Positions 3,486 through 56,700 of a DNA stretch of 64,000 nt are shown here, piece by piece. Position 1 is the first letter of the stretch, and every line of letters begins with the position of its first letter. Position numbers and translations under genes: made by a program. The notes under the pieces were generated by a model. It saw only the letters and a program-made list of their open reading frames with translations, was not told the DNA's origin and ran no database searches. This stretch comes from a virus, in the IMG/VR virus record IMGVR_UViG_3300004369_000005, positions 28,121 to 92,120 of that record. The stretch is one strand, 5' to 3'.

Positions 3486-3519
3486 TGTACTCCGCCAAAT
3501 ACTAGCATCTTGTCCCTAG

Positions 3520-3526: not shown

Positions 3527-3533
3527 TAGAGAT

Positions 3534-3561
3534 AAAAAAAATCCCCCGCTTTCGCGAGGGA
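3534..3561 (-). terminator. Rho-independent terminator after gp8
   Basis: Minus strand TCCCTCGC-GAAA-GCGGGGGA followed by T8. Confidence 0.85.
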
Positions 3562-3582
3562 CTTAATAATCTGATTTTTAAA

Positions 3583-5471: not shown

Positions 5472-5496
5472 TATTTATATTTATACGATTATTTAG
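5472..5496 (-). promoter_or_regulatory. cluster of T4 late promoters upstream of gp8
   Basis: Two overlapping TATAAATA (5472-5479, 5478-5485) and one CTAAATA (5490-5496) on the minus strand. Confidence 0.7.
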
Positions 5497-8400
5497 TCAA
5501 CCTCAATATTAATCATTTCATCACCTGCGGAGATGGTTGTTGGTCCACTGTAGACGGTACATCCATCGAAGGTTGTTCCAGTCTTACTCGTATATTGGAT
5601 AATGGATCCTCCGCTTGTAAAGAGGTAACCAGAATCCAGGAAGTATTTAGTAGGTTCAGCACCTGGGTCTCCACTGTTATTAACTGAAATTGTTCCGCTG
5701 ATGAGACCATTCTGTGAAGTAATTGCAATTGCATTTTGAATGGATGGATTAGCAAGATTGAAGTAGTCACCGTTGATTGTGTAACTGGAGTTCGGACGAT
5801 CTTCAAAGTCCGCAAGAGTCATTTGTGGGAACAATGCGGAGAATCTTTCAATAGAAACTCCAGATGCATTCGCGGAACCATCGTCATATCCAACATAATT
5901 CCAGTTTCTTAGGGTAGGTCCAGCATTACCTGTGGTATAGTTACCTAGGTAATCTCCAGAACCAGAAGAACCAAATAGTTGGTTGATAACATCAATCAGA
6001 TCTCCGTCTCTTGTTAGGACATCATGATCGTCAGTAATATCTACAAAACCGCCATCTCTGGTTGGAACTGGGTCGCTGAGGAAGATCGATTCGACGAATC
6101 CATCAACAACACCAGATCCAGGATGGATTCTGAGTAGTTCTGTTGGACCATTGTGTACGACTTCATGATGAATGCTAATATGATGTAACTCTTCAACATG
6201 ATTGACTGTTGTTCTGACAACAGAATCAGCGAAGATTCCAGTCTCTTGTGGGCGGGTTGTGATTGCGTTTGCTTCGATAGAAGACGCGGAAACAGAAGAG
6301 ATTGTTGGAGCAAGACTGGAGCGAATCTGCTTATGGGAGACCTTCCAATCTGCCAATCTAACTGCAGATTTCTTGATATCAACTTTGATTTCAATGTTGT
6401 CGCGGGTGAGAGATTCGAACCTTGCTTCAGAGTTGATTGCACCCGCACCTGCGGCACCACCAGACTCAGTAACGATATTTGCCTGTACCGTAGCAATAAC
6501 GGTAGGTCTAACCTGAGACTTGATGATAGTCTTGGCAATCTTCCAGTCAACGATCTGTACGGCATCTTTCTTGATGTCCGCCTTGATTTCAGTTGCACCA
6601 ACACTGAGGGAGTTAAAGGAAGCAATCGAATCCTTAGGAGCAATGCTGAGAGCATCACTAATAATAGAGATATGTGAAGTAGATGTAACAGTAGGAGCGA
6701 CCTGTGCCTTGACGATTGTCTGTGTGACTTTCCAATCAACCAGATTGATATCCGCTTTCTGGATCTCAAGTCTGTCTGGTTGCTTAATAGCATACATCTC
6801 ACCAAAGGAAGCAATAGAATCCTTAGGAGCAATACTAAGTGCCTCACTGATAATATCAATTCTATTGGTGGAGGTGATAGAAGGTCCAACCTGAGACTTG
6901 ATAATAGTCTTAGCAATCTTCCAGTCAACGATCTGTACGGCATCTTTCTTGATGTCTCTCTTAACAAGAGTTTCTTTACGGGCAAGAGTTTCAATAGCAG
7001 AGAACGAATCTCTAGGTGCAATACTGGTTGCGATTGCCTCAGTAACTGATGTACTGGTGAAGACAATAGAAGGTCTGAGAGTTGCCTTGACAATAGTCTG
7101 CTCGACTCTCCAATCATATAGATTGATATTTGCCTTCTGAATCTCAAGTCTATCAGGTTGTGTATAATGTGTAAGACTGTCGATAGAGACAAATGTCTCA
7201 GAAGGACGTGTTGTGATTGCTTCAGTGGAAGCGAGGAATGTTGTATTGGTGGAGACAATGGAAGGTGTAACTTGCTCCTTAATGATTGTTTGAGTAACTT
7301 TCCAGTCAACAATCTGAATTGCTTCCTTCTTGATATCTCTCTTAACAAGAGTTTCTTTCCAGGCAAGAGTTTCGATAGCAGAGAACGAATCTCTAGGAGC
7401 AATACTGATTGCATCACTGATGATGCTAATCTGTGAAGTGGAAGATACAGTAGGTCTGACAGTTGCCTTAGCATAGATCTGAGTGATCTTAACGTCAGGA
7501 ACAACTGCTTCCTTCTTAATATCTTGCTCGATAAGAGTCTCTTTCCATGCAAGACTATCGAGTTTCTCAAATGAAGCGTATGGTTTGACAGTGACAGATT
7601 CGGAGAATACGTTGAGTAGAGTAACCTCTGTCGTGATTGCCTTGTGAGCGGCAGCTGTGACAACTGTCTGAGTTACTACAGGGGCAGGGAAGAAGATGTT
7701 CTGTCTCTGCAGTTCACCGCGAATAATTGTTCTGTCAAAATCAAGCGTTGAGAATAGTCCGATGACTTTTCTAGCGCCAACGTCAGTCTTACGCTGAGTC
7801 TTAGCAGTGACATAAGATAGAGAGTCAATTGCTTGGACTGATTGAATCTGAGCGGTGATAACTCTTTCATTGAGAGTTGCTTTCTGCTCGACACTGACTG
7901 GTCTTGGTTCAAACCACTTAGCAAATTCGTTGTCTTCGTTGAACTTAACTTCAGAATCAACTTGCTTAATCTTAACAGCTGCAACAGACTGAATAGCAGC
8001 AACGCCACCAGAGACAACTTCAACCTTCTTAGGAATCTGCTTGAGGAATGTTCCTGCCAACCATGGTTTAGCTGTGGTGCCATCTACTCCTCTCTGTAGA
8101 TTTAAGAATCTATCAGTGAGTTTACGGTAGTATCTGACGACCTCATCGCCAATCATTAGGTAACCGTTCGTCTCAAACTTGCTAGTATCAGCAATGTATG
8201 CAACAGTATCTGTTGCTGTCATATCTAGATCTAGGTAAGCACCAGTCTCATAGTAGTTGAAGTTTCCTAGAGAATCGTTGAAGATTCTCTTTTGTGACTG
8301 CGTGGTAAGTTTTCTTGATGTCTGAGTGATAGAAACAGACTTGACAAAGGGAGTTCTGGTAGAAGCAATAGAAACATACTCGTTCTGACCCAAGAACATA

Positions 8401-11400
8401 TCAATCAGATATGTCTGAACCTTCTTATTCTTACTATCAGTAAACTTGGTAAGAGGTTGTACTACTCTACAATCCAAGTCTTTCTTTAGATTATCATCAC
8501 CTTCTACCTGAATAATTGCCGTGAGTGACTTGAAAACTGCTCTTGGAGATTCTGCGATAATAGCAGAAGTAGAGAATGCCAGTGGAACTGGTAGACTTGC
8601 AATAGAAATTTCGGATGCAATAGTCTTGATATTTGCATCAAGTTTTGGTTGAATACCAATAGTAACAAGAGATACAGCAATATCTCTTTCAACTAAGATG
8701 TCATATCCTCTAGCAACTACTGTCTTAGGAGCAGAAGTATATCCACTACCAGGGTTGATTAGATCAACACTGAGGATGTGACCGCCAAGAGTTAGAACCT
8801 CTGCCTGTGCTCCACCACCATTGCCATCTTCAGGAATAAACTGAATGATTGGTGGTGTATAGTATTGATATGCTGTAGGTTGTGTATTAGGATTATAGTT
8901 ACGCTGGTTCCACTCTAGTCTTGCAATTCTGCCAGTGAGAACTTGGTTTCCATTTTCGTCCTCTACCGTCTCCATAATAGGAACAACACTGAGACCTGTT
9001 CCTTCGGTAGATCCGTTGTATGCTTCGACACCAACAATACCAAAAATGGAGTTATTAGATGGAATAGAATTGCTGTAATCCTTAGAGGTTACAATGCTAG
9101 GAAGTGCAGAGATCTTTCTGAAAGCAGACTCGCCATCGACTCTAATAGTATCACCACTGTTTAGTGGTAAGAAAGTCTTTCTGTAAGATCTACCTAGTTT
9201 AGTAGCATTCCACTTACCATTTCTATCCGCAAGACGGATTCTTCCTGTCTCGTCTCTAGTAATAGTTCTGTCAATTTGATTAATGATAACGTTTGTGGTA
9301 ATTGAAGCATCAGCAATAGATGCTAGTCGTACAACATATCTGTCTCCAAATGCTTCACTTGTTACGAGTTCGTGGTATTGAGAAACAATAAATCTTGCTT
9401 TAATAGTTACAATATTACCAACTTCACTGAAGATATATGGATCAATAATATCTCCTATAGGAGCATCAAAAGATGAACCATTGGATTTAGATCCAATCGC
9501 TCTATATCCAGCATATCTCTTGTCTCGCATCCAAGAGTCATATGATACATTATCATCATTCCTAGCAAGTCTATTAACTGCTTGAACTGCAAAAGCTGTT
9601 GATTTATCGAGAGTGAATGTAATATCACCTTGGATGTAATAAGTGTTTGGTGAGTAGTCGTAGATATTGAGAATCTGACCGACATCCCTACCATAAAGGA
9701 GTCTCATATCAACATCATTCTGCTCTGTGATTGGAACATTAAAGTAGATGTTAGGACCAGAGATAGTGTAACTATAACCTTCTCTCTGTAAGACACCATC
9801 GACAAAAACGAACAAGAATTCTTTCTCGTCGATCTTCTGGACTGAGCGATCCTCCATATCCAGGATTAGGAATGGACCAGATCTTACACCATCTACCAAG
9901 TTGTAATCAATTGTAAGTCTCTTATAGTTACCAACTCCAAGACCTACAACTCTTTCAACTGCAGTTGGTTCGCCAATACTCTTAGCACCAAAATCTTGAT
10001 CCCAGATAGGAGCAACATCAAATACAATCTTGTTAGGAATTACAGTTCTATCAATATAATATGCATCGCCACCTGGGTAAGTTGCGTTATACTTAGGTTG
10101 CTGTAATACGGCATTGATGGTGATAAAGAAGTCCTCATCTTCCTCAGAGTTGACTTCTGTGCCATCTTCCCAATACAGTTCGAACTCTTTGGTTTCTCCG
10201 TCAACATAATCAGGGAGCGACCTTGAAACTGATTCTTCATTGAGAATGTCAGTAACATTAGCAAATAGAGAATCTACTGAAGAAATGACATCAGCACATT
10301 CACTATCTGGAAGCAGAGGATCTTCGATGATGTTATAATTTGTGTATACTCTCAGTGAAGTCCAGTTACCTTCGCTGTTTAGATTCTGTGGTGTCGCATC
10401 GACATATCCAGTTCCAAAAGCAAGGATGTCCTTAACAATTTGAATGTAAGAACTCAGTGCTGACGCCACATTAGCACATGCTGGGGTGAGAGAATCAATA
10501 GCAACGTCTGGATCTGTAACAGGAGCAATGTTGGTATAAGTTCCTGCACCCAGACTATTTCTCATTGCTAGTGTCATCTTCTCGACTAGCAAATCCCACG
10601 CAGCAATAGCTGCGGCAGTCTCTTCAACACTTCTATTAATAGATGTTAAAACTTCTCCATAAGGATATCCTGCATTGGTGTAATATAGTCTTCCAAATTC
10701 TACAACCTGCTCGGTGCCACCAAACTTAAGGTGATAAACAATTGCGTCGATGAGATATCCTAGATCTCTAGCACATTTTTCGACTGTTGTTTGGAGAGTG
10801 TAGTTATTGTAGATAGTAGCACTAACTTCTTCCTGCAAGTATGCTTTGTTTGCAGCAATTAGATTTGCAGCATCATAGAAAGTACCAGTATTAATACCAC
10901 TGAAGTAGAATGTAGCAGTATCAGATCCAGAGAATGATGGAGGAACACTGAAGGTATCTCCCTCATCAACAGTAAATGTATCGCCTGGTTCTACCGCTGC
11001 TGTGCTAGTTGGGCTAACAGCATTTCCATCAGTAATGCCATCAAAGGTTGTAGTTCCCGCAGGAGCTCCACCTCCTCCAAATCCAGAGTTAGAGAGTGCT
11101 GCTCTAGTCAGTGTAATTTGAGTCTCACTATCAATAGAAGCGATTCTAGTGCCTTCTGGGAAAGAACCACCAGAACTGATAAGCATACCAACAGCAACTT
11201 TGTTGGTGTCTGCCATCGTCAGAACTCTGGATCCTTGAATAAAGTTAACATTATTAATTACAATGTCCCAGTTCCTAATTGCCAGTTTAGAAAGATTGGT
11301 AGCATATCTAATAATATCGAGAGAAGATTCTTTATTGTCAGTAATATAATCGTAAGTATTATCTTCGTTAAAATACGATAGATAATCAACAGTCTTTACA

Positions 11401-14400
11401 TTACCTCCAAACCTTAAATCATGCTCGTATGCCTTGAGGATACTTCTCAGATCTGACTCATAACTAGATCCTTTGGTACTCCAATCTAGTGTTGGGTAGA
11501 TCTCTTTACCGTAACCAACAGATTCCGAGACAATAAAGTCAAGATTTCTTTCGATCTGATTAGCAGAATCTAACCATCTTCCGTTACGCTGGAAAATGTT
11601 TCTGATTTTTCTTAGATACCTGTTATTTGATGCAGTATCTTTGAATGCAAAATATCTGCCATAGAATTGCATTCCTTTGTATGATGTTACATCACCAAGT
11701 CTAGATCCAGTCAGTTTTGTGCTATTACCAAGAGGTGCTTGCGAGAATACAATATCACTTCCATCAATTGTATATGCTACTCCTGGTTCCTGTAAGATTC
11801 CATCTAAAGTAACAAAGATATTATTTACTTTTGCAGGAACAAAAGGATTATCAAAAGAATCTCTTAGTTGGAACCTAGTTGTACCAACGGTTTTGACGTT
11901 TGCTCCAGTATAAGGGGTGTCATTGATGTCAACACCATCGAATGAGTTCTTTGCATACCATGGCTTACCATCGGCAATAACATCATCATAGAATCCAGGA
12001 GTTGGGTTGTATACTCTAATAGTATATGCTCTGAATTCATTGAAATTAAATTCTGAGGATGCAATAGAACCAGGACCTCTTCTGATTCTGTTATTTTCTA
12101 CTTTTTGAATAGACTGAGTGATAACTCTATGTTTGATATCACTAGTAATAGTATTAACTTCTGGATTCCAAAGTTGTATAATAGAAGCCTTGCCAGATCT
12201 AGGCATCTTAGCAGGCATTCTTGTATTAGCATCAGTCTCAATATCAACTTGACCGAACAGTTTGAAACCAGCGGGGTGTGTTGTTGACTTAATTAAGTCT
12301 CTCCACTGATCGATTGGAGTTCTAGACTTGACAACATAGGAATAATCCTGATAGAAGAAACTATCAGTTATTCTCTGTGATCTGTCACTAACTTTACCTC
12401 TAGCAGAAGTATAAAATCCTGCATTGTCGTAAGATGATGTGATATTCTCAGTTAGTGTACTAAAATAGACTGCTTTCACCGCAGCTCTATTAGTTGGATT
12501 GCTAACACTAACAATAGGAAAATTATTTCTTACAATTCCCTGTAGTTGATTGAGTTTTAGTAAATTTGTACCAACTTTAAACTCACCAACTCGTGCTCGG
12601 AAAACTTCTCTTCCTTCTGCATTCGTTTGTGTTACAATCTCTCCTTTTTGGAAGTTACCAATCGGTTCTGTAGGAGATGATCTCTTCAGTGCAATAGTAA
12701 ACTGAGATGTAAAACTAGATGCTACTGTTTTGTCTAAATGGAAGGCACCACCATTGCGAGTAATCTTAATGCTCTGAGGAACACCAATAGTATTACTATC
12801 AACATACAACTCGGCATTAGATTCAATAATCTCTACTGTTGGTTTGTATGTGTATCCTTTTCCTGCATTCTCTACAGCAATAATAGAAATCTTACCATTA
12901 GTTACACTTGGTTTGAATCTAGCACCCTGTCCGTCTCCGTCAGTAATTACAACAACTGGATTTGTGTAATTTGATCCACCTTCTGTTACGGTTATACCAG
13001 TAATAACTTGTACTTTTTCATCAAACTCTACTTCAGCAGTTGCTTTGTATGTTGGAGTGATGTCTACACCAGTAATTACAGGAACTTTCTTATAGTTAAG
13101 ACCAAGATTAGTTACCTTAATAGTATTGATTTCGCCAATAGAGAAAGCACCTTTTGATGTGTACGTAATAACTCCCGATCCATCCCACAGAGGTTTGAAA
13201 GGAACATTGTATACAATTCTTGTAGGTGTTACATAAATTACAGTCTTCTCGCCCTGTAGAGGATCTGTAATAAGTTCTAGATATGCATCATCTGACGTTA
13301 CAACACCATTCTTGTCAAAATAGTAGAATGTTGTAAAATCAGTTCCTACTTTAGTATCATACTGGTTCTCAGCAATCCTAGGACCAAAACCAAATTTAAC
13401 TTCCGTAAACGCTCCTGTATTTCCAGGAAGAATAGTAGATGCAAGTTTTTCTTCTGTAATAAGATTGTATGCTCTACTTGGACTTAAGTCAAAATAAGTT
13501 CCAGTTAGAGATGAGTGTGAAGTATCAAACTTGTAGCGATAAAATTCCTGAATCTGAATATTTGGATTGGGGGTGAATGAAATGTTATCTTCAGAAATTT
13601 CAAACTTGAAGTTAGGAGATTCGACACTAGAAACAGTTACAAGTCTTGCTGGTGTACTACCATCAAAGAACGTGCTGCTATTTTGAATTGAAGTAGCAGT
13701 ATTTCTTTCAATACCATAATTGTAAACCAGGATTACTGATTGAGTGCTTCTATCATAAGTTAATACTTTTCCTGATGTTGATAATCCACCAACTTGGAAG
13801 TTTTCTGGGAAGTTATATTGTGCTTTATATAAAGTTACTATTTGACCGTCATAATGATTCGTATCTACAGAACCTTCAATGCCACGATTGACAGTAATCT
13901 CTGTTGGACTATCAATAGCAGTTACTTCCAGAATCTCGGATCCAATTTTAATCAGATCACCAATTGCGAGACCAGTAGTGCTCTTTAGTACAAGCTTGTT
14001 CTTTCCTTCTGCAAAACCAACGTGATCGACGTAGATGGAAAGTCTGGCAGTGCTTCTAGAAGCAGATGATCTGAAAAGAGATTCATCATCGACAGAAAGA
14101 TAATCACCTTTTCTATATCCAGTTCCTTTATTGGTGATGTCAACAGTAGCGACAGTAGCAGAAACTGTTGCAATAATTTCTAAACCTGTACTAGTTACTA
14201 ATCCAGTCTCATCATCAAACACCTTAATGTAGTCTGGAAGGTCATCATTAGTGATAATAAATGATCCTCCAATATAATTGTATCCAGGTGTTTTTACATA
14301 AACTTTATTGCCTACAATTTGACCGTTATTAATTGTAAAAGATGCAACTAACCCATCACCGTCACCGCCAGAAATTACAACATTATTGTAAACACCATCA

Positions 14401-17400
14401 CGGTATCCAGAGTGAGTTCCTTGGACCTGTAAATCTGATACAACGTTGTTTTTGACAATGATAGTTGCAGTTGCACCAGTTCCAGATCCACCAGTTAGTG
14501 CTACATCAGTATACGTAGCAGGAGCATAATCTGCTCCACCGTTTAGAATTTGGAATGCTCCAATACCAGTATCGGAAATTTCTGATTCATATTCTGGTGT
14601 TTTTAGAACTACATTTTGATATAGTCTCTTTCTAACATAATAGTCCTTTGTCTTGATAGAATCATCTGGTCTAATATCAACCGTGATTTTATCATCAATA
14701 CCAAGACCATGTGGACTTGAAGTCTCAATCAACGCAACACTCTGATTAACCTCAAATGGTTCTAAGTTATCGCTAAGAGAAGTAAGAACTACTGGTTTAG
14801 ATCCAGAAGTGTTAAAGAAGTCAGAAGACTGTAAGAAGTAGTCGCCACCAACTTCTTCTGCAACACCATTACCAGTTGGTTCATTTGCATTAGATGTAAA
14901 TTCTTGTCCTACTTGGAACTGTAATCCAGCACCAATTTGATCCCAATTCGTATCACCAAGTTCTACGATTCTGTATACTTTGTTTGGTAGAATTGAAGTT
15001 GCTGTAATTCTGCCTTGGTTAAGAGGAACCCAGTCACCCTCAGTTACTTTGATTTCTACTGTATTCTGACTGCTAGTTCCATTTAGAATTTCGCCTTTTG
15101 CTACAGCAGGGTTAATACCATCAGTCAAACTGAGGATTGCTCCTTTAGTAAAAGAACTCTTCTGATCGAGTAGAATAAAGAAGGTTTTGATGTCAGCTGA
15201 GAATGTTCCAGTGTTGTCAAATGTACCAATGACATTCTTAAGAACAATTTGATTGTCATTTCTGACTTCACCTACAATAACACCAGATGCATTAGAAGAT
15301 GGTTGTCTTAACGTATCATCTTCAAATAAGTAAGCATTTTGAATTGTAGTTAATTTAACTACTTTATTTTCATAGCTGTCAATATACTCTACAGGTTTTC
15401 CCTTAACAGACTCAACTAGTGCTTCTGCTTGAGATCCATCTGTACCTCTATTATCAAAATATAGTTTTGAATTGACAGAGAATACATCTGCAGATCTTTC
15501 TACAGTGACTCTATCAACTGTGCCTGCTTTTACGCTACCAATCTCTGCAATAACACCTTCGCCATTTCCAGGCATACCCAATTCATTTAATCTTCTAGAT
15601 TTCTTGGGAATGTCATTTTGGTTAATATTTGAATTGTAGTTACTATCTACTGGCAGTGAATAAAAGTTTTGTCCTAGAATGTATGGGAATTGTGGTACTT
15701 GATTGGCATTAATAGTAATGAAATAAGCATAAACTCCTTCTGGGAAATCAGGAGTAACACAAAATCGTCCATTGTTTTCATCTAGCGAACCATTTTTATG
15801 CTTATAGGTATAGTCATTTGTAAATGTACCTAAAGGATATTGATTGATTCCTGGTCCTCCACGTCTGGTGGCGTTAAGAATATAACTAGTTGTCATACGG
15901 GCAATGCCCGAATTATGGTCTAATGGGTCTTGGAAACCATAGGGACCATAGATTGGATTGCCATCATAAGCAAAACCAATAATTGGTGAGTGTCTTAGAG
16001 TTCCAGTTTCTTGGTTATTGGCAGTAATATTGTCATTAAGGGCATATCTAAATGCTTTTGGATTTGCAAATTGACCGTAACCGTATTCATATGAAATATT
16101 GTAATTTTCAAAGACATAACCATTCTGGTCGTCCATTACAGACTTATACTTCTCATATCTGTTGAAATTCCATTCTGTTAATTCAACTTGTGCCTTTGCA
16201 CCTTTTCCAACAGGAAGAATGTCAACTCTTACCGTACTCTGATTATAAAATACACCCTCAGAGTTTTTTTCGAATCCAGTAATTCTTCCATCAACATCAA
16301 TAATAGCAGTAAAGTCTGCAAAACGACCTTTGCCATTTCTATCAGTAATTCTTACAATAGGTGGAGAAGAATAAAACTCACCAGCATTATCAATAATCAA
16401 ACTGGTTACTTTATCGCCAGTTACAACTGCGCGAACAATAGCACCTCTACCAGAAGTTACCTCAATCGTTGGTTCAACAGGAAATACCTTCTGCGAAGTT
16501 ACAGTGTAACTTTCAACAACTGATCCTGATAGATTTGCTTGTACTAAATCAGGAACACCATCAACTAGAACAAATGGTGGTTTGGCATATCCTGAACCTT
16601 GATCTACAACAGATACAGATTCTAAATTTCCATATCTAATACTTTCTTTGTCTTTGTATCCATATAGACGAACACCATTAAGGAGAAGTCCAACTTCTGA
16701 CTTGGGAGTAGCATACTTTTCAGTAGTCTTAATTGCGTTTTTTCTAAGAATACGAAGAAGTTTTTGATCTTTAATTGGTTGGTTATCTAGAATACTTTCC
16801 TTAAAGATTTCATATGATGGAAAGCTAGAAGATGTGATATAATAATATTGTTCGTCTGCAAAAATAGCAGAAACATCAGTTGCAACTGGAGACAGTTGTG
16901 ACTCAATGGTTGGTTTAGTTGGAATCTTGACAGGAAGATTATTATTCAGGATCCATCTATAAATGTTAGATCCAGTCTGAGTGATCTTATTATCGGCAGT
17001 TTGGAAACCAGGAATAGAGATCTGAACCTTATCATTTGGATATGAATAAGGTTGAGCGTCGGTAATCTTGAAATCGTAGACTACACCTAAGGTCAGAAGT
17101 TCTACATCAGCACCTTTGATAATAACTGGTTTGTATACAGATGTACCTACCTCATGGGTATAAGTAACATCACCTCTTTTCTCGATAGTAAATTGAGTTA
17201 CATTTTTGTCATTGAAGGAGATAATTTCTTCTCCAATTAGAATTTTACCTTTTTCCTTCCATCCAACGGTAGAAAATACATTAACTCTTTTTCCAATACC
17301 TGTTGTATTAGAAAGAGTCTTAGTGAGACTAGTTTTTGTGGAAATAGCAAACTCACCAGTTACAGTCTCTGGTGCAAGGACCAGATTGACAATTGCTTCT

Positions 17401-18260
17401 CCATCTGCAGTAATATCGCCAATTACGTTATCTACAGTAGCGGAGACATATCCATACTCTTCTGTCTCTTCTTGTACTACTACTTTACCAATTAGATCGT
17501 TAACGTTGCCACTAACAACCTTTACTTTCAAAGCATAGATATTCGTCCAATCAGACTCAGAAGACTTAAGGGTAAAATCTGTTGGTTTGTATACTTCTGG
17601 TTTTTCCCTGGCATCTTTAGATATGATAGTATTAAAGATGAACTTGATAGAACTATCAGTACCTTTTGCCTTATAGAACTTATCAATGTTCTTGATAAGA
17701 GTTCTTTTATCAACTTCACCTTTTAGATACTTTTCTGGGAAAGAACCTAAGTATTGAGATTCAAAATTCTTGACAAATGCATACAGGAAAAGGTTACTAA
17801 TATTGTAAACCTTTACACCATAGTTATGACTTGCTGCATTTGTGCTTGTAAAAGTAGTAGACTCATACAAGTCACCTAATGATGTATTGCCACTTACTCC
17901 TCTATGGCAATTTTTAAATTCAGTTTCTGTTCTTTTTTCATAGAAAATAATCTCATCATTAATTCTGATGTAACCATTCTTCTCTGGGAATGAAGTTGCA
18001 TCATCAACAACGATGATTGTTTCAGTAGCATTAACTGTTACTGATAGTTCTGTGTACTGCTTTAGAAGACGTTTCTCATAATAATCAATATCAGCATACT
18101 TTTGGATATTGTTAATAATATCCAAGGTGCCGCCTTGCACTTCCTGTGCTTCATAATACTTCTCTACAAACTTACTAAACAGTTCGTATTCTGAAGAAAT
18201 GAATTCAGGAAGCTGCGACTCAATTAGAGTTGAAATTCTCTTAGTCTTTACAGCAGGCAT
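5493..18260 (-). CDS. gp7: giant baseplate wedge initiator gp7 (4255 aa) with phycobiliprotein-like inserts and C-terminal 63-aa repeats
   Basis: N-terminus ISTLIESQLPEFISSEYELFSKFVEKYYE; YHYH-like HSPIIGFAYDGNPIYGPYG segment; ITDSFFYQDYSYVVKS...HPAGFKLFG motif; located between gp6 and gp8. Confidence 0.85.
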   Translation of the reverse strand: MPAVKTKRISTLIESQLPEFISSEYELFSKFVEKYYEAQEVQGGTLDIINNIQKYADIDYYEKRLLKQYTELSVTVNATETIIVVDDATSFPEKNGYIRINDEIIFYEKRTETEFKNCHRGVSGNTSLGDLYESTTFTSTNAASHNYGVKVYNISNLFLYAFVKNFESQYLGSFPEKYLKGEVDKRTLIKNIDKFYKAKGTDSSIKFIFNTIISKDAREKPEVYKPTDFTLKSSESDWTNIYALKVKVVSGNVNDLIGKVVVQEETEEYGYVSATVDNVIGDITADGEAIVNLVLAPETVTGEFAISTKTSLTKTLSNTTGIGKRVNVFSTVGWKEKGKILIGEEIISFNDKNVTQFTIEKRGDVTYTHEVGTSVYKPVIIKGADVELLTLGVVYDFKITDAQPYSYPNDKVQISIPGFQTADNKITQTGSNIYRWILNNNLPVKIPTKPTIESQLSPVATDVSAIFADEQYYYITSSSFPSYEIFKESILDNQPIKDQKLLRILRKNAIKTTEKYATPKSEVGLLLNGVRLYGYKDKESIRYGNLESVSVVDQGSGYAKPPFVLVDGVPDLVQANLSGSVVESYTVTSQKVFPVEPTIEVTSGRGAIVRAVVTGDKVTSLIIDNAGEFYSSPPIVRITDRNGKGRFADFTAIIDVDGRITGFEKNSEGVFYNQSTVRVDILPVGKGAKAQVELTEWNFNRYEKYKSVMDDQNGYVFENYNISYEYGYGQFANPKAFRYALNDNITANNQETGTLRHSPIIGFAYDGNPIYGPYGFQDPLDHNSGIARMTTSYILNATRRGGPGINQYPLGTFTNDYTYKHKNGSLDENNGRFCVTPDFPEGVYAYFITINANQVPQFPYILGQNFYSLPVDSNYNSNINQNDIPKKSRRLNELGMPGNGEGVIAEIGSVKAGTVDRVTVERSADVFSVNSKLYFDNRGTDGSQAEALVESVKGKPVEYIDSYENKVVKLTTIQNAYLFEDDTLRQPSSNASGVIVGEVRNDNQIVLKNVIGTFDNTGTFSADIKTFFILLDQKSSFTKGAILSLTDGINPAVAKGEILNGTSSQNTVEIKVTEGDWVPLNQGRITATSILPNKVYRIVELGDTNWDQIGAGLQFQVGQEFTSNANEPTGNGVAEEVGGDYFLQSSDFFNTSGSKPVVLTSLSDNLEPFEVNQSVALIETSSPHGLGIDDKITVDIRPDDSIKTKDYYVRKRLYQNVVLKTPEYESEISDTGIGAFQILNGGADYAPATYTDVALTGGSGTGATATIIVKNNVVSDLQVQGTHSGYRDGVYNNVVISGGDGDGLVASFTINNGQIVGNKVYVKTPGYNYIGGSFIITNDDLPDYIKVFDDETGLVTSTGLEIIATVSATVATVDITNKGTGYRKGDYLSVDDESLFRSSASRSTARLSIYVDHVGFAEGKNKLVLKSTTGLAIGDLIKIGSEILEVTAIDSPTEITVNRGIEGSVDTNHYDGQIVTLYKAQYNFPENFQVGGLSTSGKVLTYDRSTQSVILVYNYGIERNTATSIQNSSTFFDGSTPARLVTVSSVESPNFKFEISEDNISFTPNPNIQIQEFYRYKFDTSHSSLTGTYFDLSPSRAYNLITEEKLASTILPGNTGAFTEVKFGFGPRIAENQYDTKVGTDFTTFYYFDKNGVVTSDDAYLELITDPLQGEKTVIYVTPTRIVYNVPFKPLWDGSGVITYTSKGAFSIGEINTIKVTNLGLNYKKVPVITGVDITPTYKATAEVEFDEKVQVITGITVTEGGSNYTNPVVVITDGDGQGARFKPSVTNGKISIIAVENAGKGYTYKPTVEIIESNAELYVDSNTIGVPQSIKITRNGGAFHLDKTVASSFTSQFTIALKRSSPTEPIGNFQKGEIVTQTNAEGREVFRARVGEFKVGTNLLKLNQLQGIVRNNFPIVSVSNPTNRAAVKAVYFSTLTENITSSYDNAGFYTSARGKVSDRSQRITDSFFYQDYSYVVKSRTPIDQWRDLIKSTTHPAGFKLFGQVDIETDANTRMPAKMPRSGKASIIQLWNPEVNTITSDIKHRVITQSIQKVENNRIRRGPGSIASSEFNFNEFRAYTIRVYNPTPGFYDDVIADGKPWYAKNSFDGVDINDTPYTGANVKTVGTTRFQLRDSFDNPFVPAKVNNIFVTLDGILQEPGVAYTIDGSDIVFSQAPLGNSTKLTGSRLGDVTSYKGMQFYGRYFAFKDTASNNRYLRKIRNIFQRNGRWLDSANQIERNLDFIVSESVGYGKEIYPTLDWSTKGSSYESDLRSILKAYEHDLRFGGNVKTVDYLSYFNEDNTYDYITDNKESSLDIIRYATNLSKLAIRNWDIVINNVNFIQGSRVLTMADTNKVAVGMLISSGGSFPEGTRIASIDSETQITLTRAALSNSGFGGGGAPAGTTTFDGITDGNAVSPTSTAAVEPGDTFTVDEGDTFSVPPSFSGSDTATFYFSGINTGTFYDAANLIAANKAYLQEEVSATIYNNYTLQTTVEKCARDLGYLIDAIVYHLKFGGTEQVVEFGRLYYTNAGYPYGEVLTSINRSVEETAAAIAAWDLLVEKMTLAMRNSLGAGTYTNIAPVTDPDVAIDSLTPACANVASALSSYIQIVKDILAFGTGYVDATPQNLNSEGNWTSLRVYTNYNIIEDPLLPDSECADVISSVDSLFANVTDILNEESVSRSLPDYVDGETKEFELYWEDGTEVNSEEDEDFFITINAVLQQPKYNATYPGGDAYYIDRTVIPNKIVFDVAPIWDQDFGAKSIGEPTAVERVVGLGVGNYKRLTIDYNLVDGVRSGPFLILDMEDRSVQKIDEKEFLFVFVDGVLQREGYSYTISGPNIYFNVPITEQNDVDMRLLYGRDVGQILNIYDYSPNTYYIQGDITFTLDKSTAFAVQAVNRLARNDDNVSYDSWMRDKRYAGYRAIGSKSNGSSFDAPIGDIIDPYIFSEVGNIVTIKARFIVSQYHELVTSEAFGDRYVVRLASIADASITTNVIINQIDRTITRDETGRIRLADRNGKWNATKLGRSYRKTFLPLNSGDTIRVDGESAFRKISALPSIVTSKDYSNSIPSNNSIFGIVGVEAYNGSTEGTGLSVVPIMETVEDENGNQVLTGRIARLEWNQRNYNPNTQPTAYQYYTPPIIQFIPEDGNGGGAQAEVLTLGGHILSVDLINPGSGYTSAPKTVVARGYDILVERDIAVSLVTIGIQPKLDANIKTIASEISIASLPVPLAFSTSAIIAESPRAVFKSLTAIIQVEGDDNLKKDLDCRVVQPLTKFTDSKNKKVQTYLIDMFLGQNEYVSIASTRTPFVKSVSITQTSRKLTTQSQKRIFNDSLGNFNYYETGAYLDLDMTATDTVAYIADTSKFETNGYLMIGDEVVRYYRKLTDRFLNLQRGVDGTTAKPWLAGTFLKQIPKKVEVVSGGVAAIQSVAAVKIKQVDSEVKFNEDNEFAKWFEPRPVSVEQKATLNERVITAQIQSVQAIDSLSYVTAKTQRKTDVGARKVIGLFSTLDFDRTIIRGELQRQNIFFPAPVVTQTVVTAAAHKAITTEVTLLNVFSESVTVKPYASFEKLDSLAWKETLIEQDIKKEAVVPDVKITQIYAKATVRPTVSSTSQISIISDAISIAPRDSFSAIETLAWKETLVKRDIKKEAIQIVDWKVTQTIIKEQVTPSIVSTNTTFLASTEAITTRPSETFVSIDSLTHYTQPDRLEIQKANINLYDWRVEQTIVKATLRPSIVFTSTSVTEAIATSIAPRDSFSAIETLARKETLVKRDIKKDAVQIVDWKIAKTIIKSQVGPSITSTNRIDIISEALSIAPKDSIASFGEMYAIKQPDRLEIQKADINLVDWKVTQTIVKAQVAPTVTSTSHISIISDALSIAPKDSIASFNSLSVGATEIKADIKKDAVQIVDWKIAKTIIKSQVRPTVIATVQANIVTESGGAAGAGAINSEARFESLTRDNIEIKVDIKKSAVRLADWKVSHKQIRSSLAPTISSVSASSIEANAITTRPQETGIFADSVVRTTVNHVEELHHISIHHEVVHNGPTELLRIHPGSGVVDGFVESIFLSDPVPTRDGGFVDITDDHDVLTRDGDLIDVINQLFGSSGSGDYLGNYTTGNAGPTLRNWNYVGYDDGSANASGVSIERFSALFPQMTLADFEDRPNSSYTINGDYFNLANPSIQNAIAITSQNGLISGTISVNNSGDPGAEPTKYFLDSGYLFTSGGSIIQYTSKTGTTFDGCTVYSGPTTISAGDEMINIEVD
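6250..7560 (-). repeat. about 7 tandem ~63-aa (~189 bp) repeats in the gp7 C-terminal region
   Basis: Recurring DIKKxAxQIVDWKxxxTIIKxQVxPxxxST...SIAPxDS; identical DNA blocks at 6535-6578 and 6913-6956. Confidence 0.9.
10240..11590 (-). other. two nested phycobiliprotein-like domains within gp7
   Basis: FYDAANLIAANK...EKCARDLGYLIDAIVYHLKFGGT...PACANVASAL, nested inside WLDSANQIERN...YESDLRSILKAYEHDLRFGGN...SECADVISSVD. Confidence 0.65.
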
Positions 18261-47729: not shown

Positions 47730-50700
47730 TCAGAGTTCCGTGAGCCACCAACCGCGTAGGTTAGATGGGATAGATCTTTCATCTTCTGCACCAGGAGCAT
47801 CAGTTGGACCGACATAAATCAATCCGAAGGATGCGTTTCTGGTCTGTACGATTAGTTCTCCACTATCCCAAGCAACAGAATTGAATCCGCTACCTTCTTT
47901 AATGGTAGAACCTGTGATGTCACCCTGAACTGCAACTGACAAACCACCAACCTTGAGTGCTCTAATGACTAACTGAGAGTCATAAGATAGGTTTCCACTG
48001 CATTCAATGAATCTAATCATATCACCAGTTTCAGCATAATCTGGTAGATACAGAACCATATTGGTGCCTGCAGGATTATTTAGAATGTAGTTGTTATTAG
48101 GTTGTAATGGGGATCCTTGTGTCTGACCGATACCTGTAGCAGATTGTTCTACGTAAGTATATCTACGACCACCATTTCTAGTGAAGTAACGCTGAATACC
48201 GAAGGTATCGATAGAACCATCTTGATAGATCTTAAAGTCTCTTGGACCTTCAGTTCCACCAGTTCCAGCATTACCAATGTTATCGATATGGAAGATTGGT
48301 GTAGTTGCATCACCAAACGCATCGCCATCATTAGCAATTAATTTGCCTCTGACATAGAGTTGTTCTCCAACATCAACAGATCCCGTGTCACCATATACTT
48401 TAAACTTAAGTTCTTCAGTGCAGTTACCCCATGCTTCACAATTATCTTCGAAGACGTTGATGTCACCATGAATGAAGGCATGACCCTTGAGGAACATACC
48501 ACCCTTCCTAGTCTTGGCGTCTAGAATTGCACCATCAGCGGGGTGATCGTCATCGTTAGCAACGTTGAAGATTAGAGTCTCTCCATCGCAACCATACATT
48601 CTCAATTCACCACTGTATAGTTCTAAAGCATCATGAATAATAGTTGTACCACCACCAAATGTTGCGGTATAGAAATCGCGAGGATGATCTCCAATAAAAT
48701 CAGGATCAAGAACATTAAGTGCTTGCTGAACTGATTGTGTTGCTTTAGATAGTCTTACAGAATATGCAGAATCTTGACCGTCAATACTATCTGGATAGAA
48801 CCATTCAGTAGTTACAGCAGATGTAATAGGATCAGTAGTGCTAATTCTAAAGAAGTGTGGGGAGTCTAGTTTGTTACCAACTATTCTAGAATCTGCTAGT
48901 TTAACCTGAATTAGGGAAGCAAGGTATGATGGGTTAGCAGGTGTTCTATTAGTTGCAGGGATGTCCTCAATTAGTTTGCTGCTTAACTTATACTTGTAGA
49001 TCTTAACAACTGTTGCTCCACCACCAGTGAAGTTAAGTTTACTAGTTCCTTCAAGTCCTCTACCACCATTTGGATAAGAAGAAGCAGGATAATCAGCATT
49101 GTAGATTGTAGGCAGATAACCCTGACCGCCAGAAGTATAAGGATTATCGGTGATAATCATGATCTCACCGCGACCTGATGATACTCCAGCACCTTCATAA
49201 ACTGCGATCATGTCGCCCTTCTGGAAGACGCTGATGTCATTAACAGGAATGTTGACATCATCTACTGTAAATCCTACAGAAGTTGTAGTAATTGGACCAC
49301 CAATGTTAAGGGTGAACTTACTAAATCTGTAACCATAAGCAATACTATTCTCAATAGTATGGTTGACTGGAGTAGAACTCCACCATCCACCATGTGCGAA
49401 TACTGCACCTTGTGTAGTACCAATAACAGTGTCACCATTACAGACATTAACGTCAAATGTGGTGCCATACTTGTTATTGATATAGAGGTGGTTATCAAGT
49501 GATGGATCGGGACTTGGATATGTAAAGTCTCTATCGCAGAGACCATTCAAGTTCAGTGTTCCGTTAACATTGAGTAGTGATGTGCTTGTACCATCACCAA
49601 TGGTTACATCACCAGTAGTAGAATCAACAACGAATACATCATTTGCAGTTCCACCAGAACAGTCAGAAGAAATTCTGAACTTAATTTTCTCTTGACTTAG
49701 AGGACTTTGAATCTGTAGAACTTCACCAACGTCATATGTCGTTGGATCTGGTGCTTGTGGTGTGCTGTCACGACCCAAGATAATATAATCATTGAGTTTT
49801 AGACTGCTACCAATTCTGGAGAGATATACATTAGTGATAGACTGCTGGTCGAATGGAATATCCTGAGTAGTCCAAGTAGCATCAAACTGTACGTTACACT
49901 TGTAAACAGAAGTTCTATCTGGGTGATCGTTTCTTACGCCAGTAAATGTACCAAATGGTTGTCTTTCAACAACAATGTAGTATGGTCTGACATTAATTCT
50001 AGGTGTAGAAACAACCTTAACAAATTCAACATGAGTTGAAATTGATGTCGCAGAACCTGTAACATATGTGATTCCAACAACACCGTAGTTATCAATATTA
50101 GCACCAGTGTTTGATCGCTGGAACAACTGGAACTTAACACCTGCCTGCTGTGCTGCAACAGGAATGTTAACTTCCATCTTAACGAACTGTCTGTTCGTAT
50201 CAGCATCCATAAACTGAACGAACTGTGGTGTTGTTACCAGATCTCTAACACCAGCTGGGACAATATCACCAATAGTAACCCATGTATTGCCATCATCAAG
50301 AGAGTATCTTAGTTGTAGTGCTTCATTTGCCAATGCAGGAGAAACGATATCTGGGAATTCTCCACCATTGCTATCAGTTCCGACGTGAACGTCGAATTCC
50401 ATCTTGGAAATAGCACCAGTAGATAGGAATGATCCATCAACTGCATCAAGTGTTACGTAACGAGCTCCACTGCCTTTGAAGTGGATGTATGTCTGACCTG
50501 TGTTAAATCCGCCACTGGATCCTATACCAGGACCAGAGTTATCAAAGAGAACACCCTGATAATCATTAACAAATGATGCTGTTGGATCTGCTTGGTCGAT
50601 ATCAGCAGTGTCTAGAGCAACACGGGACTCGCCAACACCTTCAGGAGAATCAATCAATAGAATGTCATTCTCACGGAAGTATGACTCACCATCAACTAGT

Positions 50701-53700
50701 GGAGCATTCAATAGTGGTAGGTAATACTGATTACCAGTTAGTTCAGGTAGCTCCTGAGGTTCAACCTGTGGGTTGCCACCAATTTCAGTGATTTCATTCT
50801 GATATTGAATACCACCCCAGTTTGAACTACCAACAGTATCAATCTCGTTATATCCTGCTTCTCCAGTCGTCAAACGTGCTACTGTAATAATATCAACGTT
50901 GTTGTTGAATAGACCGTCACCAAGTTCACCAGATAGGTGCTCCATATTGGAAGAACCAGATCTGTTTCTGAATGCAGAGAATGTGAATGCATCCAGACCA
51001 CCACAGAGAACGAGGTTGGAGTTAACTTCAGCAGTTGCATTGACAACCAAGTTGTTTCTAATAGTGGTTGTACCACCCTGACCTGCCATAGTCAGGTTAG
51101 AAACGTTAGTAGCGAAGTTGAGGATGTTGGTTACAGAGTTACCACCAAAGAAGTCAACTGTACCAGCAGTAGATGTTAGTGTTAGACTATCAGTAAGTCC
51201 TCTTCTGGTGATAGGACCACCATTAACATCAGCACCAACACCAAGGATAATATCACCAGCAACCTTAAATGACTTGGTGTCAATCGTTGTTGTTGATAGA
51301 GTCTCAGAAGGTTGTGCGTATGCACCACCAATGACTACCTTAGAAATATTAGCGTTGTTGTCATCAGGAGTATGACCGATGTAGATGTTACTGTGTAGTG
51401 ACTTATTACCAAGGAAGAAGAACTGATCTCCTTCTACATCATCACCAAGGAAGAATCTAGACTGTACCTTGTTGGCGTTACCAATGTAAATGTCTTGAGA
51501 TGACGTAGTGGTGTTACCAATTGTGATTAGTTCAGCACCATTTGCAAGTGCAAGGGTGTTAGTGTTATCAACGATTGTCGCTGCAGTTACATTGTTAGCA
51601 ATGTTAACTGTACCAACGAATGTAGCATCATCAATCACATTGAAGATACCAGTTGTAATACCAGTTCTGATCTCAGCAGTATCAGTTCCATCTACACCAG
51701 GATGGTTGTAGACTTCAATGTCTCTGTGGAATCTTACATCTTCAGTGAAACGAGCATCACCTTGAACTACCAGTGCTCTGTCTAGTTCTGCATTGGTGAT
51801 GTTAACACCAACCTTACCATAGTTATCTGGTCTGCCATTTTCAGAAGAAGCAGTAGTTAGTGTAGAAACACGGAATACTGCTTGCTTAGCATCAATAAAG
51901 GAGACGATAGTAGAACGCTGTGCGTTGTTGAGGAGATCATCAGAATAACCAACAACAAATGCATCAGATACTTTATCTACAGTACGTGTAGCGAATGAAG
52001 CGTTGTTGATCCAACTATCCTGAGTCGTCTTACGACCAGTGATGAATGTTGTACCAATAACTTCAAGGTTTGCACGAGGATCAGTGTTCTTAGGTTGTAC
52101 CCAAGCAGTATCATATGCCTCATGATCGACTCTGTTAAGAGTGTTAATACCAAGTTTGAAGTCACCCCAGGTATCACTATCAGTTCTCATTACTTCAGAA
52201 CCGATTACACCATATTCCTTCCACTTGTTCTCCGCATAGAACATTCTTCCATTTGGAGATGGAGCAGCATTGAAATTAATGATGTCTGTATCCCAGTCGT
52301 AACTACCAACAGGGATGCTTACCTGACTGTTAACAGGAACAATCTCGATAAAGAGTTGATTACTCTGACCGTTGAATGCATACTCCGCATTGTTGATGAT
52401 CTTCCAGTTTCCGATGAAAGATGCATATCTAACAATGTTCTCAAGCTTAATAGTTGAGGTAGGAGTAATTGGTGGGGTAAAGTCGTCAAGTTTAATTGGG
52501 TTGTTTGCTGGATCGATAAAGGTGATCGTAGCAATGTAGGTGGAACCAGATTGCTCGATTTCAATAGCATCAATGTTAGCATTATCAATTTCAGTGAAGA
52601 TGTTTGCATAGATCCAACCAAGAGAACCAGTCTTATTAACTGCATCTCCCTTGAGAAGCATATCTCCTGGTTCTGGTAGAACACCACCAGAGATAGTAAC
52701 GATAGTTTCACCACCTTGCTGCGTTTCTTGTGGTACACCACCATATACAACATACTGCATGATGTTAATGGAAGTTCCACCATTAGCAATGGTGAGTCCC
52801 TGGTTTGGTGCTACATTACCATTTGAAACTGCACTACCTGCAGGTGCATGAATTAGAGACTTGTAACCAAGTCCTTTACCGCGTCTATTATATTCAAATA
52901 CAGCAGAAGAAACTGTGTTCTGACCGATGCGAATATGTCCGCCTTCACCAATACCATCAATCTGATCGAAGTTGAGGTATTGATCTTGTGGTTGACCGTT
53001 AGCACCAGTTGAATTTACTAGAGAGTAAATTAGTAGTGGAGTTCCTTGCTGAACGAGTTGATTGTCAGGAACGTTGATTTCAACAGGGGAGAGGAATCTG
53101 CTGACTAGCTGACCGTTGTCATCACCAACAACTGTGATGTTCTTATTGAACGTTACAGGTGTATCAAAGGTAGTAACGAGTTGTCCGATTACGTCATCCT
53201 CGTCTCCATCATCGGCAAGAACTGCTCTATCGATGAAGGTTTCTTCACCAGTGATAGCATTGATTCTTCTGTTACCGATGTAGAGGTCACCCTGGGAGTT
53301 AATACCCGTGTAGAAGACGATACCAGCATCTTGCTTCTTCGACTGTGCGTAGAAGTCCTCTTCGGGTTCTAGGACGATCTCCTGACGGGCAGGAAGACCT
53401 GTTGAGTAGTTACCAGGACCGAAACCAAGGTATTCAAACGTGTGGTTACCAGCACGAGCGATAGATGGTCTACGGAGTTCAACATAGTAACGCTGATCTG
53501 AGAGAACTGTGCTATCACCAGCAATAGGAATCAAGCGATCTTCCGAACCTGAAGTTGCATTACCTTCCTGTGCCTGAATTCTGTTATCAATTACATTACC
53601 ATCAAAATCACTAGTAGTATTAGTATACTTGTTACTGATGAATGCTGGTTGATGTAGTAGATCCGTAACGAGTTCTCTAGTTACAGAGTGCTTGGTATCA

Positions 53701-56700
53701 TTAACAGTAACCTTACCATGAATATAGTTGTCAGCAGCAGAGAATGCCTGAGGTGGATCAATTAGAGCACTGTAGTATGCTTTTTCTGCCTCACTTGTAC
53801 CAGAACTCTTAAACCAGAGAGGATCGTTTCTGTAGTTTAGAGGATACAGTTTACCAACTGGTTGTGAGAACTTAAACTTCTGGAAGTTACCACCAGCACC
53901 AGCACCTTGTGGGAATGGTGAGATGTTACCGCGCAAGCAAGTTAGATAGTAGATACCATCTTGCTGACCTGGGATTCTCTTCTGAAGTTCTTTACTATCA
54001 AAGATGTAGAAGGTGTCTTCAATGATACCTGCATCTTCGACAGATGCAACATAGTATTCAATACCAGTGTCATCTTGGATTGTATCACCAGGAGTAATGG
54101 TATAAACGTTAGCGCCGTTTTGCTTGTAATAATACTCTGGGAAATTTTTTCGGATATGTGTCTTCAGAGGTAGCGATTTACCCATATCCTGGTCTTCCAG
54201 CATATCAGCAAACACAGTTGTGTCGCCTTGTGTCTGAGAGAATCTAGTGTTGTAATACTCACTATACTCTAGGGAAGCAGTGCCCTTAGCACCACTGATA
54301 CCCTTGATGATGAGATAGTGATCTCCACCAACACTATAGTATCCATGGATAAATGCACTACCTGAAGAGTTACCAGCAAATGTTACCCTGTTTGCACTAG
54401 GACCACTGGATAGACTTTGAGTTTTATTAGTGTTGAAAGCACCACCCTGAGGAGAAGAAATCTTGACAGTTGTAAAGATTTCATTTCTCAAACCACTGAA
54501 GTTGACAGTATCAACACCATGATCGAATACCGTAATTTCTAGATACTTAATTTCTGGATCTAGTGGATCTTCAACATAACGACCAGACTGGATGCTAGCA
54601 GCAATACCAGAAGAGAATCTGGCGACACTGGTATAGTTTGTATCCTGTGGTTCACCTGTTAAAGGTCTTCTAAATGGATCATATCTTTCCTCTTCTTTGA
54701 GGGTATCATCTAGATCAAAGTCACGCTGAGTGAAACCAATGTATTCAGCAGGTTGCTGTGGGTTGATGAAACGTGCTCCATATACGTTACCAGATACAGG
54801 CTTGAGGAGTAGTTTCTGTGGTACTAACTTACGAGTATCGTCAGTTCTTGTCTTAATAACAAATCCGTTGATAGGATCTCTAGCGTTCTCAAGGTACTTA
54901 GGAATGACATAACGTAGTTTATAAGTTCTCTCGTCCGCTTCACGAGTATCACTAATACGCTCATACCATGTATCAGTAGTGCTTTGCTTACCAGCAAAGT
55001 CACCTTGGTGAATTCTATAGAAGATCTCCTGCTGAACGATATCAGTGTCGCCAGATAGAGCACCAGTAATCTTATCCTTAACGTTAAGATACCACTTACC
55101 ACCCTCAGCATCAGAGCTAGAGAATGTTGGATCGAAGCGCATTGGACTGAGCTTCTTGTTAGCAAATACTCTGAATGGTTTTCTGCTACCACCAATAGGA
55201 ATATCAAATTGAATTGGATTGACACCACCTTCAGTGTAAGTGCTGACCTGCGCTCTTGCTTCTGCTTCAGTTTTGTGAACTGTGAAGATCTTAGAAGTCT
55301 GATACCTTACATAGAATTCCTTATAAGGATTGATTCTACCATAATTAGGATCGTTGGAGTTAGTTACAGCAACATCAGGATCGTTAATAAACTGAGATGC
55401 AACTGCAGGTAATTCACTACCTTCTACTTCTCTAAAGAATACTTTCTGAATAGTAGTAGCAGAGTTTGGTTTATCGAAGATATGTGCGATGTCAGACTCA
55501 ATACCACCCAAAACAGTATCAGTTAGAGTACACTGATAGTTGTGTAGATCATATTTGTCATCGATGATGAACTGATAGAGATCGATCTCTACATCTGGAT
55601 CAATAGATTCTGTCTCAGATGCATAGATGTAGATACCTGCTGCTGCATTCTCCTTAGACGATGCAAGCATCAACTTGGTTGCATCACTACCGTTGAAGTA
55701 TGTTGTTCCAGAATAGTCAACAGGTTGTGTTGCTCTACCAGGAGCAATTACATAGTATACTTCATTAGTATCAAAACCATTTGGTAGTCTAACCAGACGC
55801 TTGTCAACATCTACATACTCGTTACGATCTGGATCAAAGCGAGGACGTGGTACAAGTCTGACAGGAGTTCCAGTCTCGAAGTTGTGTGCTTCAGGAGATC
55901 CAGTACCTGTCTTATCAATAGTAAATACAGTCGCTCTAGATGCTAGTAGTGAGGTATTGAAGGTTGCTTCCTGTCTGGGAATAGTAGGAACTTCATTACC
56001 ATTAGCATCAGTGTAGGTTAGACCAGTGTTGATGATAGTAGTGATGTTCTGAATAAGAACTTCAATAGCATCTGCAACAGCAGCACACTCGCGTTGTGTA
56101 GGTGATGTAGTGGTGTCCTGAATAACATCAGGATTTTCTCCTTCTGGTCCAACAACTACAGTCTCAGGGAGAGTGTCAGCCCATGCAGGAGTCTCGAACT
56201 TAAAGTGTAGATTAACAGTACCAGTTGCACCTACAGGAGTTGCATTCTGTGTCTTACCAAAATCTAGTCTAGATCCTCTTACACCCAGTTCAATAAACTG
56301 ATCGTCAATAATATTCTTAACGAAAGTATTTTCTGGAATATTAGTATAGGTAGGTACAGCAGTTGATTGTAGAAGACCGTTGACATATGGAGTAGGAGAT
56401 GACTGATATTCAGTAACACTCATGCCAATGACAATACCTCTAGTGTCACCAACGTTGACTCGTGCTGCTGTTGCTGGTGCAGAAGTAATTTCACAGTTAT
56501 AAGCAACAAAGTCAAAATTACGCATTGCTGCAGTTGCCAACTGACCGACATAGTTCCATGCATCGGTTGTTTCTACTGCTTCTCCATCGATGTAATCTAG
56601 TTGAGCTCCAACAAAGTATGCTTCACCTGCCTGAATGCTGTTGATGTTACCACCATAACGTAGGTCATTGACGACTGCATCAACGATATAAGAAACGTCT

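Follow-up and report, generated by a model that had tools for sequence, protein, structure and literature searches.

Phycobiliprotein (PBP) subunits (PF00502: CpcA/B, CpeA/B, ApcA/B and ApcE) are the closest described relatives of two domains that we report here from the gp7-like giant baseplate protein of a marine cyanobacterial virus. The protein is encoded in a stretch of 64,000 nucleotides, called the window below, that corresponds to positions 28,121 to 92,120 of the 92-kb IMG/VR record IMGVR_UViG_3300004369_000005. Taking homology, fold and nesting together, we are nearly certain that residues 2225-2675 of this protein comprise two globin-type domains homologous to PBP subunits. Like these subunits, the viral module shows helices A-H in a globin-type fold (Z 14.6-17), profile homology with alpha subunits as the closest matches (97%), a K-C-x-R-D-I/L-G ... 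G-G motif at helix E and a Cys where helix H begins. In other respects the two differ: the module is without the N-terminal X-Y helix hairpin, so that no classic alpha-beta protomer is to be expected; it is part of a virion baseplate protein outside the cell and not placed on thylakoids; one module domain sits within the G-H loop of a second, beside a beta domain; and Tyr takes the Cys84 site in the outer copy, Arg86 varies from copy to copy and a chromophore on the module is a prediction. ApcE is similar in that its PBP domain, too, lies within a far larger protein and has a loop insertion. Non-haem globin sensors (RsbR N-domain, pXO2-61 and globin-coupled sensors) share the general fold (Z 9-11) and are signal-input modules of larger assemblies, but they score below the PBPs, show no detected sequence similarity and lack Cys-x-Arg-Asp. 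In the literature searched we found neither PBP-type domains nor bilins described for cyanophage virions.

For the protein as a whole the described counterparts are gp7 of T4 and of the cyanomyoviruses. The ORF (open reading frame) lies between gp6-like and gp8-like baseplate genes (18265-20061, phrog_219, and 3583-5433, phrog_438, both baseplate wedge subunits). Its product matches PHROG 4406 'virion structural protein' with E 0 and PHROG 2885 'baseplate wedge subunit' with E 2e-215, and PHROG 2885, 708 and 438 are all matched as baseplate wedge subunit families. A module-bearing protein of P-HM2 is annotated as gp7, and the orthologues are annotated either as gp7 or as virion structural protein. 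Gene neighbourhood and family assignment thus mark the protein as a gp7-type baseplate wedge component. Its size is about fourfold that of T4 gp7 and, unlike the latter, it carries YHYH, PBP-type and repeat domains; the likeness is one of context and families. The gene and the segment of interest are organized as follows:

5493..18260, minus strand: gp7-like giant baseplate wedge protein of 4,255 amino acids (aa), a single ORF of 12,768 nt
11271..11588, minus strand: outer PBP-fold domain, N-terminal part, aa 2225-2330, helices A, B, E, F, F' and G (hidden Markov model (HMM) positions 7-121, E 9e-14)
10905..11267, minus strand: beta-rich insert domain and Gly-rich linker, aa 2332-2452 (strands at model residues 133-253)
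10392..10904, minus strand: inner, complete PBP-fold domain, aa 2453-2623 (AlphaFold2 predicted local distance difference test (pLDDT) 76; structural and hhalign matches)
10308..10391, minus strand: low-confidence linker back to the outer domain, aa 2624-2651 (coil, pLDDT 43-71)
10236..10307, minus strand: outer domain, C-terminal helix H, aa 2652-2675 (HMM positions 123-168, E 0.0035; model helix 453-474)

A first-pass annotation of the window, made from the letters alone, had quoted six peptides from this region as PBP-like. All six are found in the translation of this one ORF, and each position given for them falls on the codon of a key residue: Cys2496 (10773-10775), Cys2595 (10476-10478), Cys2655 (10296-10298), Tyr2267 (11460-11462), the Asp of FYDAAN (10872-10874) and the Asp of WLDSAN (11568-11570). 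An ungapped identity to CpcA at 12 of 22 positions, also stated there, could be reproduced against PDB chain 4f0t_A.

Searches with single sequences gave marginal but one-sided results. With a 507-aa segment as query, phmmer returned 23 matches at E<10 among 177,635 PDB sequences: all were PBPs, the best was CpcA (4f0t_A, E 0.0037), and the alignment to this chain pairs KCARDLGY with KCARDIGY. PF00502 was the sole Pfam family matched by the segment (E 1.7e-4, 22.0 bits; gathering cut-off 22.2). For further comparisons we used 50 non-identical orthologue segments of gp7 that are 51-98% identical. PF00502 was detected in 27 of the 50 at E<=0.01 (best 1.8e-6), next to ESM4 in five, taken to be low-complexity matches, and two single matches to other families; nothing else recurred. 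Profiles of the 50 orthologues found almost only phycocyanin alpha chains in the PDB, and all matches but one were PBPs. The ESM Atlas gave no usable match. It is the comparison of profiles with profiles that settles that the resemblance exceeds chance: when the inner-domain orthologue profile was aligned by hhalign to five CpcA/CpeA sequences, which were taken from cyanobacterial plasmids, a probability of 91.8% was obtained (E 7.5e-7), and adding 24 divergent copies from 16 phages to the profile raised it to 96.6-97.2% (E 5e-10 to 9e-11). Against beta subunits the orthologue-only profile reached 2.3% and the diverse profile 62% (E 7.5e-5). Throughout these methods the register remained constant, with Cys-x-Arg-Asp of the module on Cys84-Arg86-Asp87.

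The fold was analyzed in an AlphaFold2 model of aa 2200-2700 (pLDDT 77.6; predicted template modelling score (pTM) 0.69), which contains, in this order, seven helices (model residues 10-129), a strand-rich part (133-253), six helices (261-416), a coil and a final helix (453-474). VIA-align superimposed PBP beta chains on the outer domain over model residues 21..475 and chain residues 25..177, with a root-mean-square deviation (rmsd) of 2.1 A for 138 residues and Z 16-17; on the N-terminal side it is model helices 29-129 that align. As this alignment spans the first helices and the last helix, these form one complete PBP-type domain, whose G-H loop holds all that lies between them as an insertion. 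This insertion begins with the beta-rich domain and its linker; Foldseek weakly matched chain 8eci_1 of Arthrobacter phage Bridgette (62 columns, E 0.036), and this match is assumed to fall on the beta-rich part. The nesting is also seen by sequence: the HMM of the inner domain matches aa 2225-2330 and aa 2628-2675 in a colinear manner, flanking the inner copy at aa 2451-2623, and the N-terminal part of the outer domain matches positions 16-60 of the PF00502 profile. When the inner domain alone was compared with 48,161 representative chains without a Foldseek prefilter, the best match was phycoerythrin beta (5aqd_M; Z 14.6, rmsd 2.9, 149 aa), followed by allophycocyanin (12.7), ApcE (12.6), non-haem globin sensors (9-11) and haem globins (6-8). 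Foldseek against the PDB yielded no match at E<=1e-3 (best 0.019), its top matches being nearly all PBPs. Both domains show the globin-type all-helical arrangement A, B, E, F, F', G, H, and both lack the N-terminal X-Y hairpin of alpha-beta pairing: alignments of the inner domain, which follows the beta insert without a gap, begin at chain residue 23, and those of the outer domain with low rmsd begin no earlier than chain residue 25. Because the hairpin is missing and the context is a virion, assembly of the module into (alpha-beta)3 phycobilisome discs is not expected. The claim of the first-pass annotation, a PBP-like module set within a second, degenerate copy of itself, was thus borne out by HMM matches as well as by the structure model, and structural likeness to PBPs, which it had named beforehand as a test, is present in both domains.

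That helical bundles merely resemble each other here by chance or convergence, with no homology behind it, we find hardly credible. Helical models may reach Z values of about 14 without kinship, and the single-sequence scores are marginal, with E 0.0037 against the PDB and a Pfam score that falls 0.2 bits short of the cut-off for PF00502, a shortfall that we count against homology. Chance would, on the other hand, have to account for an hhalign probability of 97% with E of about 1e-10, for sister copies that exceed the Pfam cut-off, for three PDB sequence searches whose matches were PBPs in all cases but one, for structural alignments over the full chain at 2.1 A and for a motif register that is identical in every method.

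We then compared the residues of the bilin sites. The inner domain carries K-C2496-A-R-D (Cys84/Arg86/Asp87-type), FGGT and, at the N-terminus of helix H, Cys2595 (beta-153/155/165-type). Its Cys-x-Arg-Asp, at the start of helix E, corresponds to the alpha84/beta82 thioether site with the propionate-binding Arg and the pyrrole-binding Asp. This C-x-R-D signature of thioether attachment is present in the inner domain (KCARD) and missing from the outer one, which has Tyr2267 at the Cys84-type position, followed by HDLRFGGN. In both domains the Cys that opens helix H corresponds to the beta-153/155/165 site; in the outer domain this is the invariant Cys2655 (beta-155-type). Global hhalign places the second Cys of the module on beta-Cys153. 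If helix H of the model is ungapped, Cys2595 and Cys2655 would fall on beta-Cys165, a placement derived from alignment end points and not at residue level. Conservation of the Cys among gp7 orthologues had likewise been chosen beforehand as a test and was found for Cys2496 (Cys84-type) in 49 of 50, for Cys2595 in 50 of 50 and for Cys2655 in 50 of 50 segments. The loss of the Cys84-type site in one copy, also stated in the first-pass annotation, is seen throughout: the outer position is Tyr in 50/50 orthologues, with Asp or Asn at +3 kept in most. In the 24 divergent copies, which derive from gp7 and fibre proteins, the first Cys and the Asp at +3 each occur in 23, the second Cys in 22 and Arg at +2 in only about half. 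Although the copies share only about 25% identity, few residues are as well conserved as the two cysteines and the Asp.

The first-pass annotation had further stated that the module recurs in a second virion protein about 45 kb away. This is the case, and a third protein upstream of the window has it as well; within the 92-kb record the module is present in only three giant minus-strand proteins, gp7 and the following two:

47730..63368, minus strand: 5,212-aa fibre protein with many module copies (14 HMM stretches, eight at E<1e-4)
G000 7432-17877, minus strand, upstream of the window: 3,479-aa protein with two strong HMM stretches (4e-9, 6e-16) and one split stretch

The N-terminal 2,123 aa of the fibre protein match PF00502 at 5.4e-16, and a single stretch does so at 4.3e-7, over the Pfam cut-off. 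From this recurrence we infer that the module may have a virion-wide function. With the gp7 module as tblastn query 94 of 50,697 phage records were matched and with the multi-copy fibre query 382; all of them are Synechococcus or Prochlorococcus phages or are named 'cyanophage' or 'marine virus'. Within this phage collection the module is confined to cyanophages. At E<=1e-3 the module matched 1,206 of 1.84 billion cluster representatives, including giant metagenomic proteins of 4,799-6,382 aa (P0122, P0123, P0124) with 31-36 module stretches each.

The gene cpeT encodes a beta-155-type bilin lyase, and T-type lyases serve the Cys at beta-153/155. Phage cpeT is widespread, also in Prochlorococcus phages, and has, to our knowledge, no demonstrated substrate. 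Gasper et al. (2017) reportedly found that CpeT of P-HM1 binds phycoerythrobilin (PEB) tightly without transferring it to the host CpeB. The Cys that this lyase class needs is offered by the module, and every cpeT-bearing phage that we surveyed has the module; however, three module-bearing phages are without cpeT, and the pairing of module and CpeT is one of gene co-occurrence, not of enzymology. The distribution of cpeT among phages has been described before (PMC10452541). In the 92-kb record, which is about 48% complete and therefore uninformative on this point, none of the genes for CpeT, a ferredoxin-dependent bilin reductase or haem oxygenase was found. The contig ends in a tRNA cluster, with tRNA-Asn at window positions 63906-63980 (minus strand), separated by 20 nt from the end of the contig. 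The closest complete relative is S-RSM4, where HNH, tRNA Tyr/Asn/Ala/Thr/Asp and cpeT come, in this order, after the module-bearing fibre; since the contig breaks off in the cluster that precedes cpeT there, cpeT probably lies just past its end. In S-RSM4 (NC_013085, 162121-177047) about 1 kb separates cpeT from the start of a giant structural gene that carries the module and lies downstream of it on the same strand. The arrangement in S-PM2 (NC_006820, 163961-170376) is alike, with cpeT about 2 kb upstream of the first module.

Using the module profile and Pfam models we surveyed 24 complete genomes, of which the second batch (nine) was picked for module or cpeT. cpeT was called in 17 of the 24, where two copies pass only on summed scores and that of ACG-2014f, sub-threshold in Pfam, rests on tblastn and annotation; the module is present in all 17. 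Four genomes are without the module, P-SSM2, S-SM2, S-SSM7 and the podovirus P-SSP7, and cpeT is absent from each of them. In a gp6 tree the three module-less myoviruses form one clade (support 92/93), so that the joint absence of module and cpeT counts as a single evolutionary event. S-SKS1, B23 and DSL-LC03 carry the module with both cysteines and have no cpeT. The view that the co-occurrence is statistically strong, as it stood with 15 genomes (11/0/0/4), was rejected on account of the single event and of these three later module-positive, cpeT-negative genomes. The association of module and cpeT is suggestive and not established. A comparison with bilin genes had been proposed in the first-pass annotation, and it turned out differently for the two sets: cpeT does co-occur with the module, within the limit of one evolutionary event, whereas pebS, pcyA and ho1 showed no correlation in the surveyed genomes. 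A link of the module to these three was rejected; P-SSM2 and S-SSM7 have bilin reductase and haem oxygenase genes and no module.

Light is needed for adsorption by several cyanomyoviruses. Liu et al. (2019) reported that P-HM1 and P-HM2 fail to adsorb in the dark, that P-SSM2 adsorbs in the dark, less than in the light, and that P-SSP7 and P-GSP1 adsorb in the dark (PMC6628666). The light-dependent adsorption of S-PM2 is cited there as independent of host photosynthesis, the mechanism being left open (PMC6628666). In our survey the module was present in P-HM2 and S-PM2 and was found neither in P-SSM2 nor in P-SSP7. The direction agrees with the dark-adsorption phenotypes and fits a connection; these are four data points and not a test.

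From these observations we derive the following proposal, which we place first among the readings considered. Late in infection of a bilin-making cell, the gp7 domains would become holo-domains with PEB or phycocyanobilin thioether-bound to the conserved cysteines; the helix-H Cys would be served by the phage T-type lyase CpeT or, in phages without CpeT, by host lyases. The virion would then leave the cell with a few covalently bound bilins on baseplate and fibres. More speculatively, light absorbed by these bilins could change the conformation of baseplate or fibres and thereby gate adsorption. We regard covalent attachment of a bilin to the module as an open contest in which the scales tip slightly to the negative side. 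The arguments for it, drawn from sequence and gene content, are that two thioether cysteines and the Asp are kept in very divergent copies, that the module is restricted to viruses assembling in bilin-producing cells, and the cpeT pattern. Gating of adsorption by light through module-borne bilins is a doubtful step, and the full picture, in which cyanomyovirus particles would be biliproteins whose bilins, attached in gp7 and fibres by CpeT or host lyases, serve as a light sensor for adsorption (P-HM1/P-HM2, S-PM2 and others), strikes us as rather unlikely.

A number of findings weigh against the pigmented module. The outer gp7 domain has no Cys84-type site, Arg86 is often lost, kept by no more than about half the divergent copies, and the X-Y hairpin is missing from both domains; S-SKS1, B23 and DSL-LC03 have the module without cpeT, the co-absence in the module-less clade counts only once, and the presence of bilin reductase and haem oxygenase genes does not follow that of the module. 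Furthermore, pigmented cyanophage virions are unreported in the literature searched, and conserved cysteines of an extracellular protein could instead serve disulfides or metal binding. The losses of Arg86 and Cys84, the missing hairpin, the three phages without cpeT and the lack of reports on pigment would all be in line with an apo structural module: a PBP fold captured long ago from the host and used as a rigid, nestable helical block without chromophore, its cysteines employed in inter-chain disulfides, metal binding or helix capping. So would the multiplication of the module in the manner of a structural repeat, with up to 36 stretches per metagenomic protein and 1,206 cluster representatives. 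We give this account slightly less weight than the pigmented module. It leaves unexplained why two cysteines and an Asp should be among the most conserved residues at about 25% identity and why the cysteines should occupy exactly the two canonical thioether sites. In the PBP fold the distance between these two sites does not allow a disulfide within a domain, and the outer domain keeps the second Cys alone. A PBP pocket with a free Cys would, moreover, be expected to acquire a bilin in a bilin-rich cell.

The globin-type pocket might also bind something else, such as another tetrapyrrole, haem or a host surface molecule, and act as sensor or adhesin without any link to bilins. Such a role would suit a domain in receptor-contacting parts of the virion, and, after the PBPs, non-haem and haem globin sensors and photocobilins come closest in structure (Z 9-11). 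It is improbable nevertheless: it is PBP alpha subunits in particular that the sequence resembles, down to the bilin-site motif, no pattern of the proximal-His type was noted, and apart from ESM4 (5/50) no other family match recurred among the orthologues.

With the module, two questions about cyanophages become testable, namely how adsorption can need light independently of host photosynthesis and what the substrate of phage cpeT is. A PBP-derived domain with both thioether cysteines in baseplate and fibres is a concrete candidate for both. If virions were indeed biliproteins, this would explain cpeT in Prochlorococcus phages, whose hosts lack a beta-155-type substrate. If the module is apo, a light-harvesting fold of the host would have been reused as a nestable virion module, a use for which we found no precedent in the literature searched. 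Whether a virus particle carries pigment and senses light thus becomes a question for experiment.

Outside the PBP-type segment, gp7 contains a YHYH domain (PF14240, E 2e-28) at aa 696-856 (window 15693-16175, minus strand) that is found in almost all orthologues. Tandem repeats of about 75 aa, with the pattern WKETL.KRDIKK...DWKV.QTI.K, occupy aa ~3360-3830 (window ~6770-8180, minus strand), where G+C is raised (0.43-0.45); a 540-aa ORF in another frame (6041-7663) overlaps them and is probably spurious. Near the baseplate block, at window positions 21202-21768 (minus strand), lies an auxiliary gene for a 2-oxoglutarate (2OG)-Fe(II) oxygenase (phrog_81, E 3e-33).

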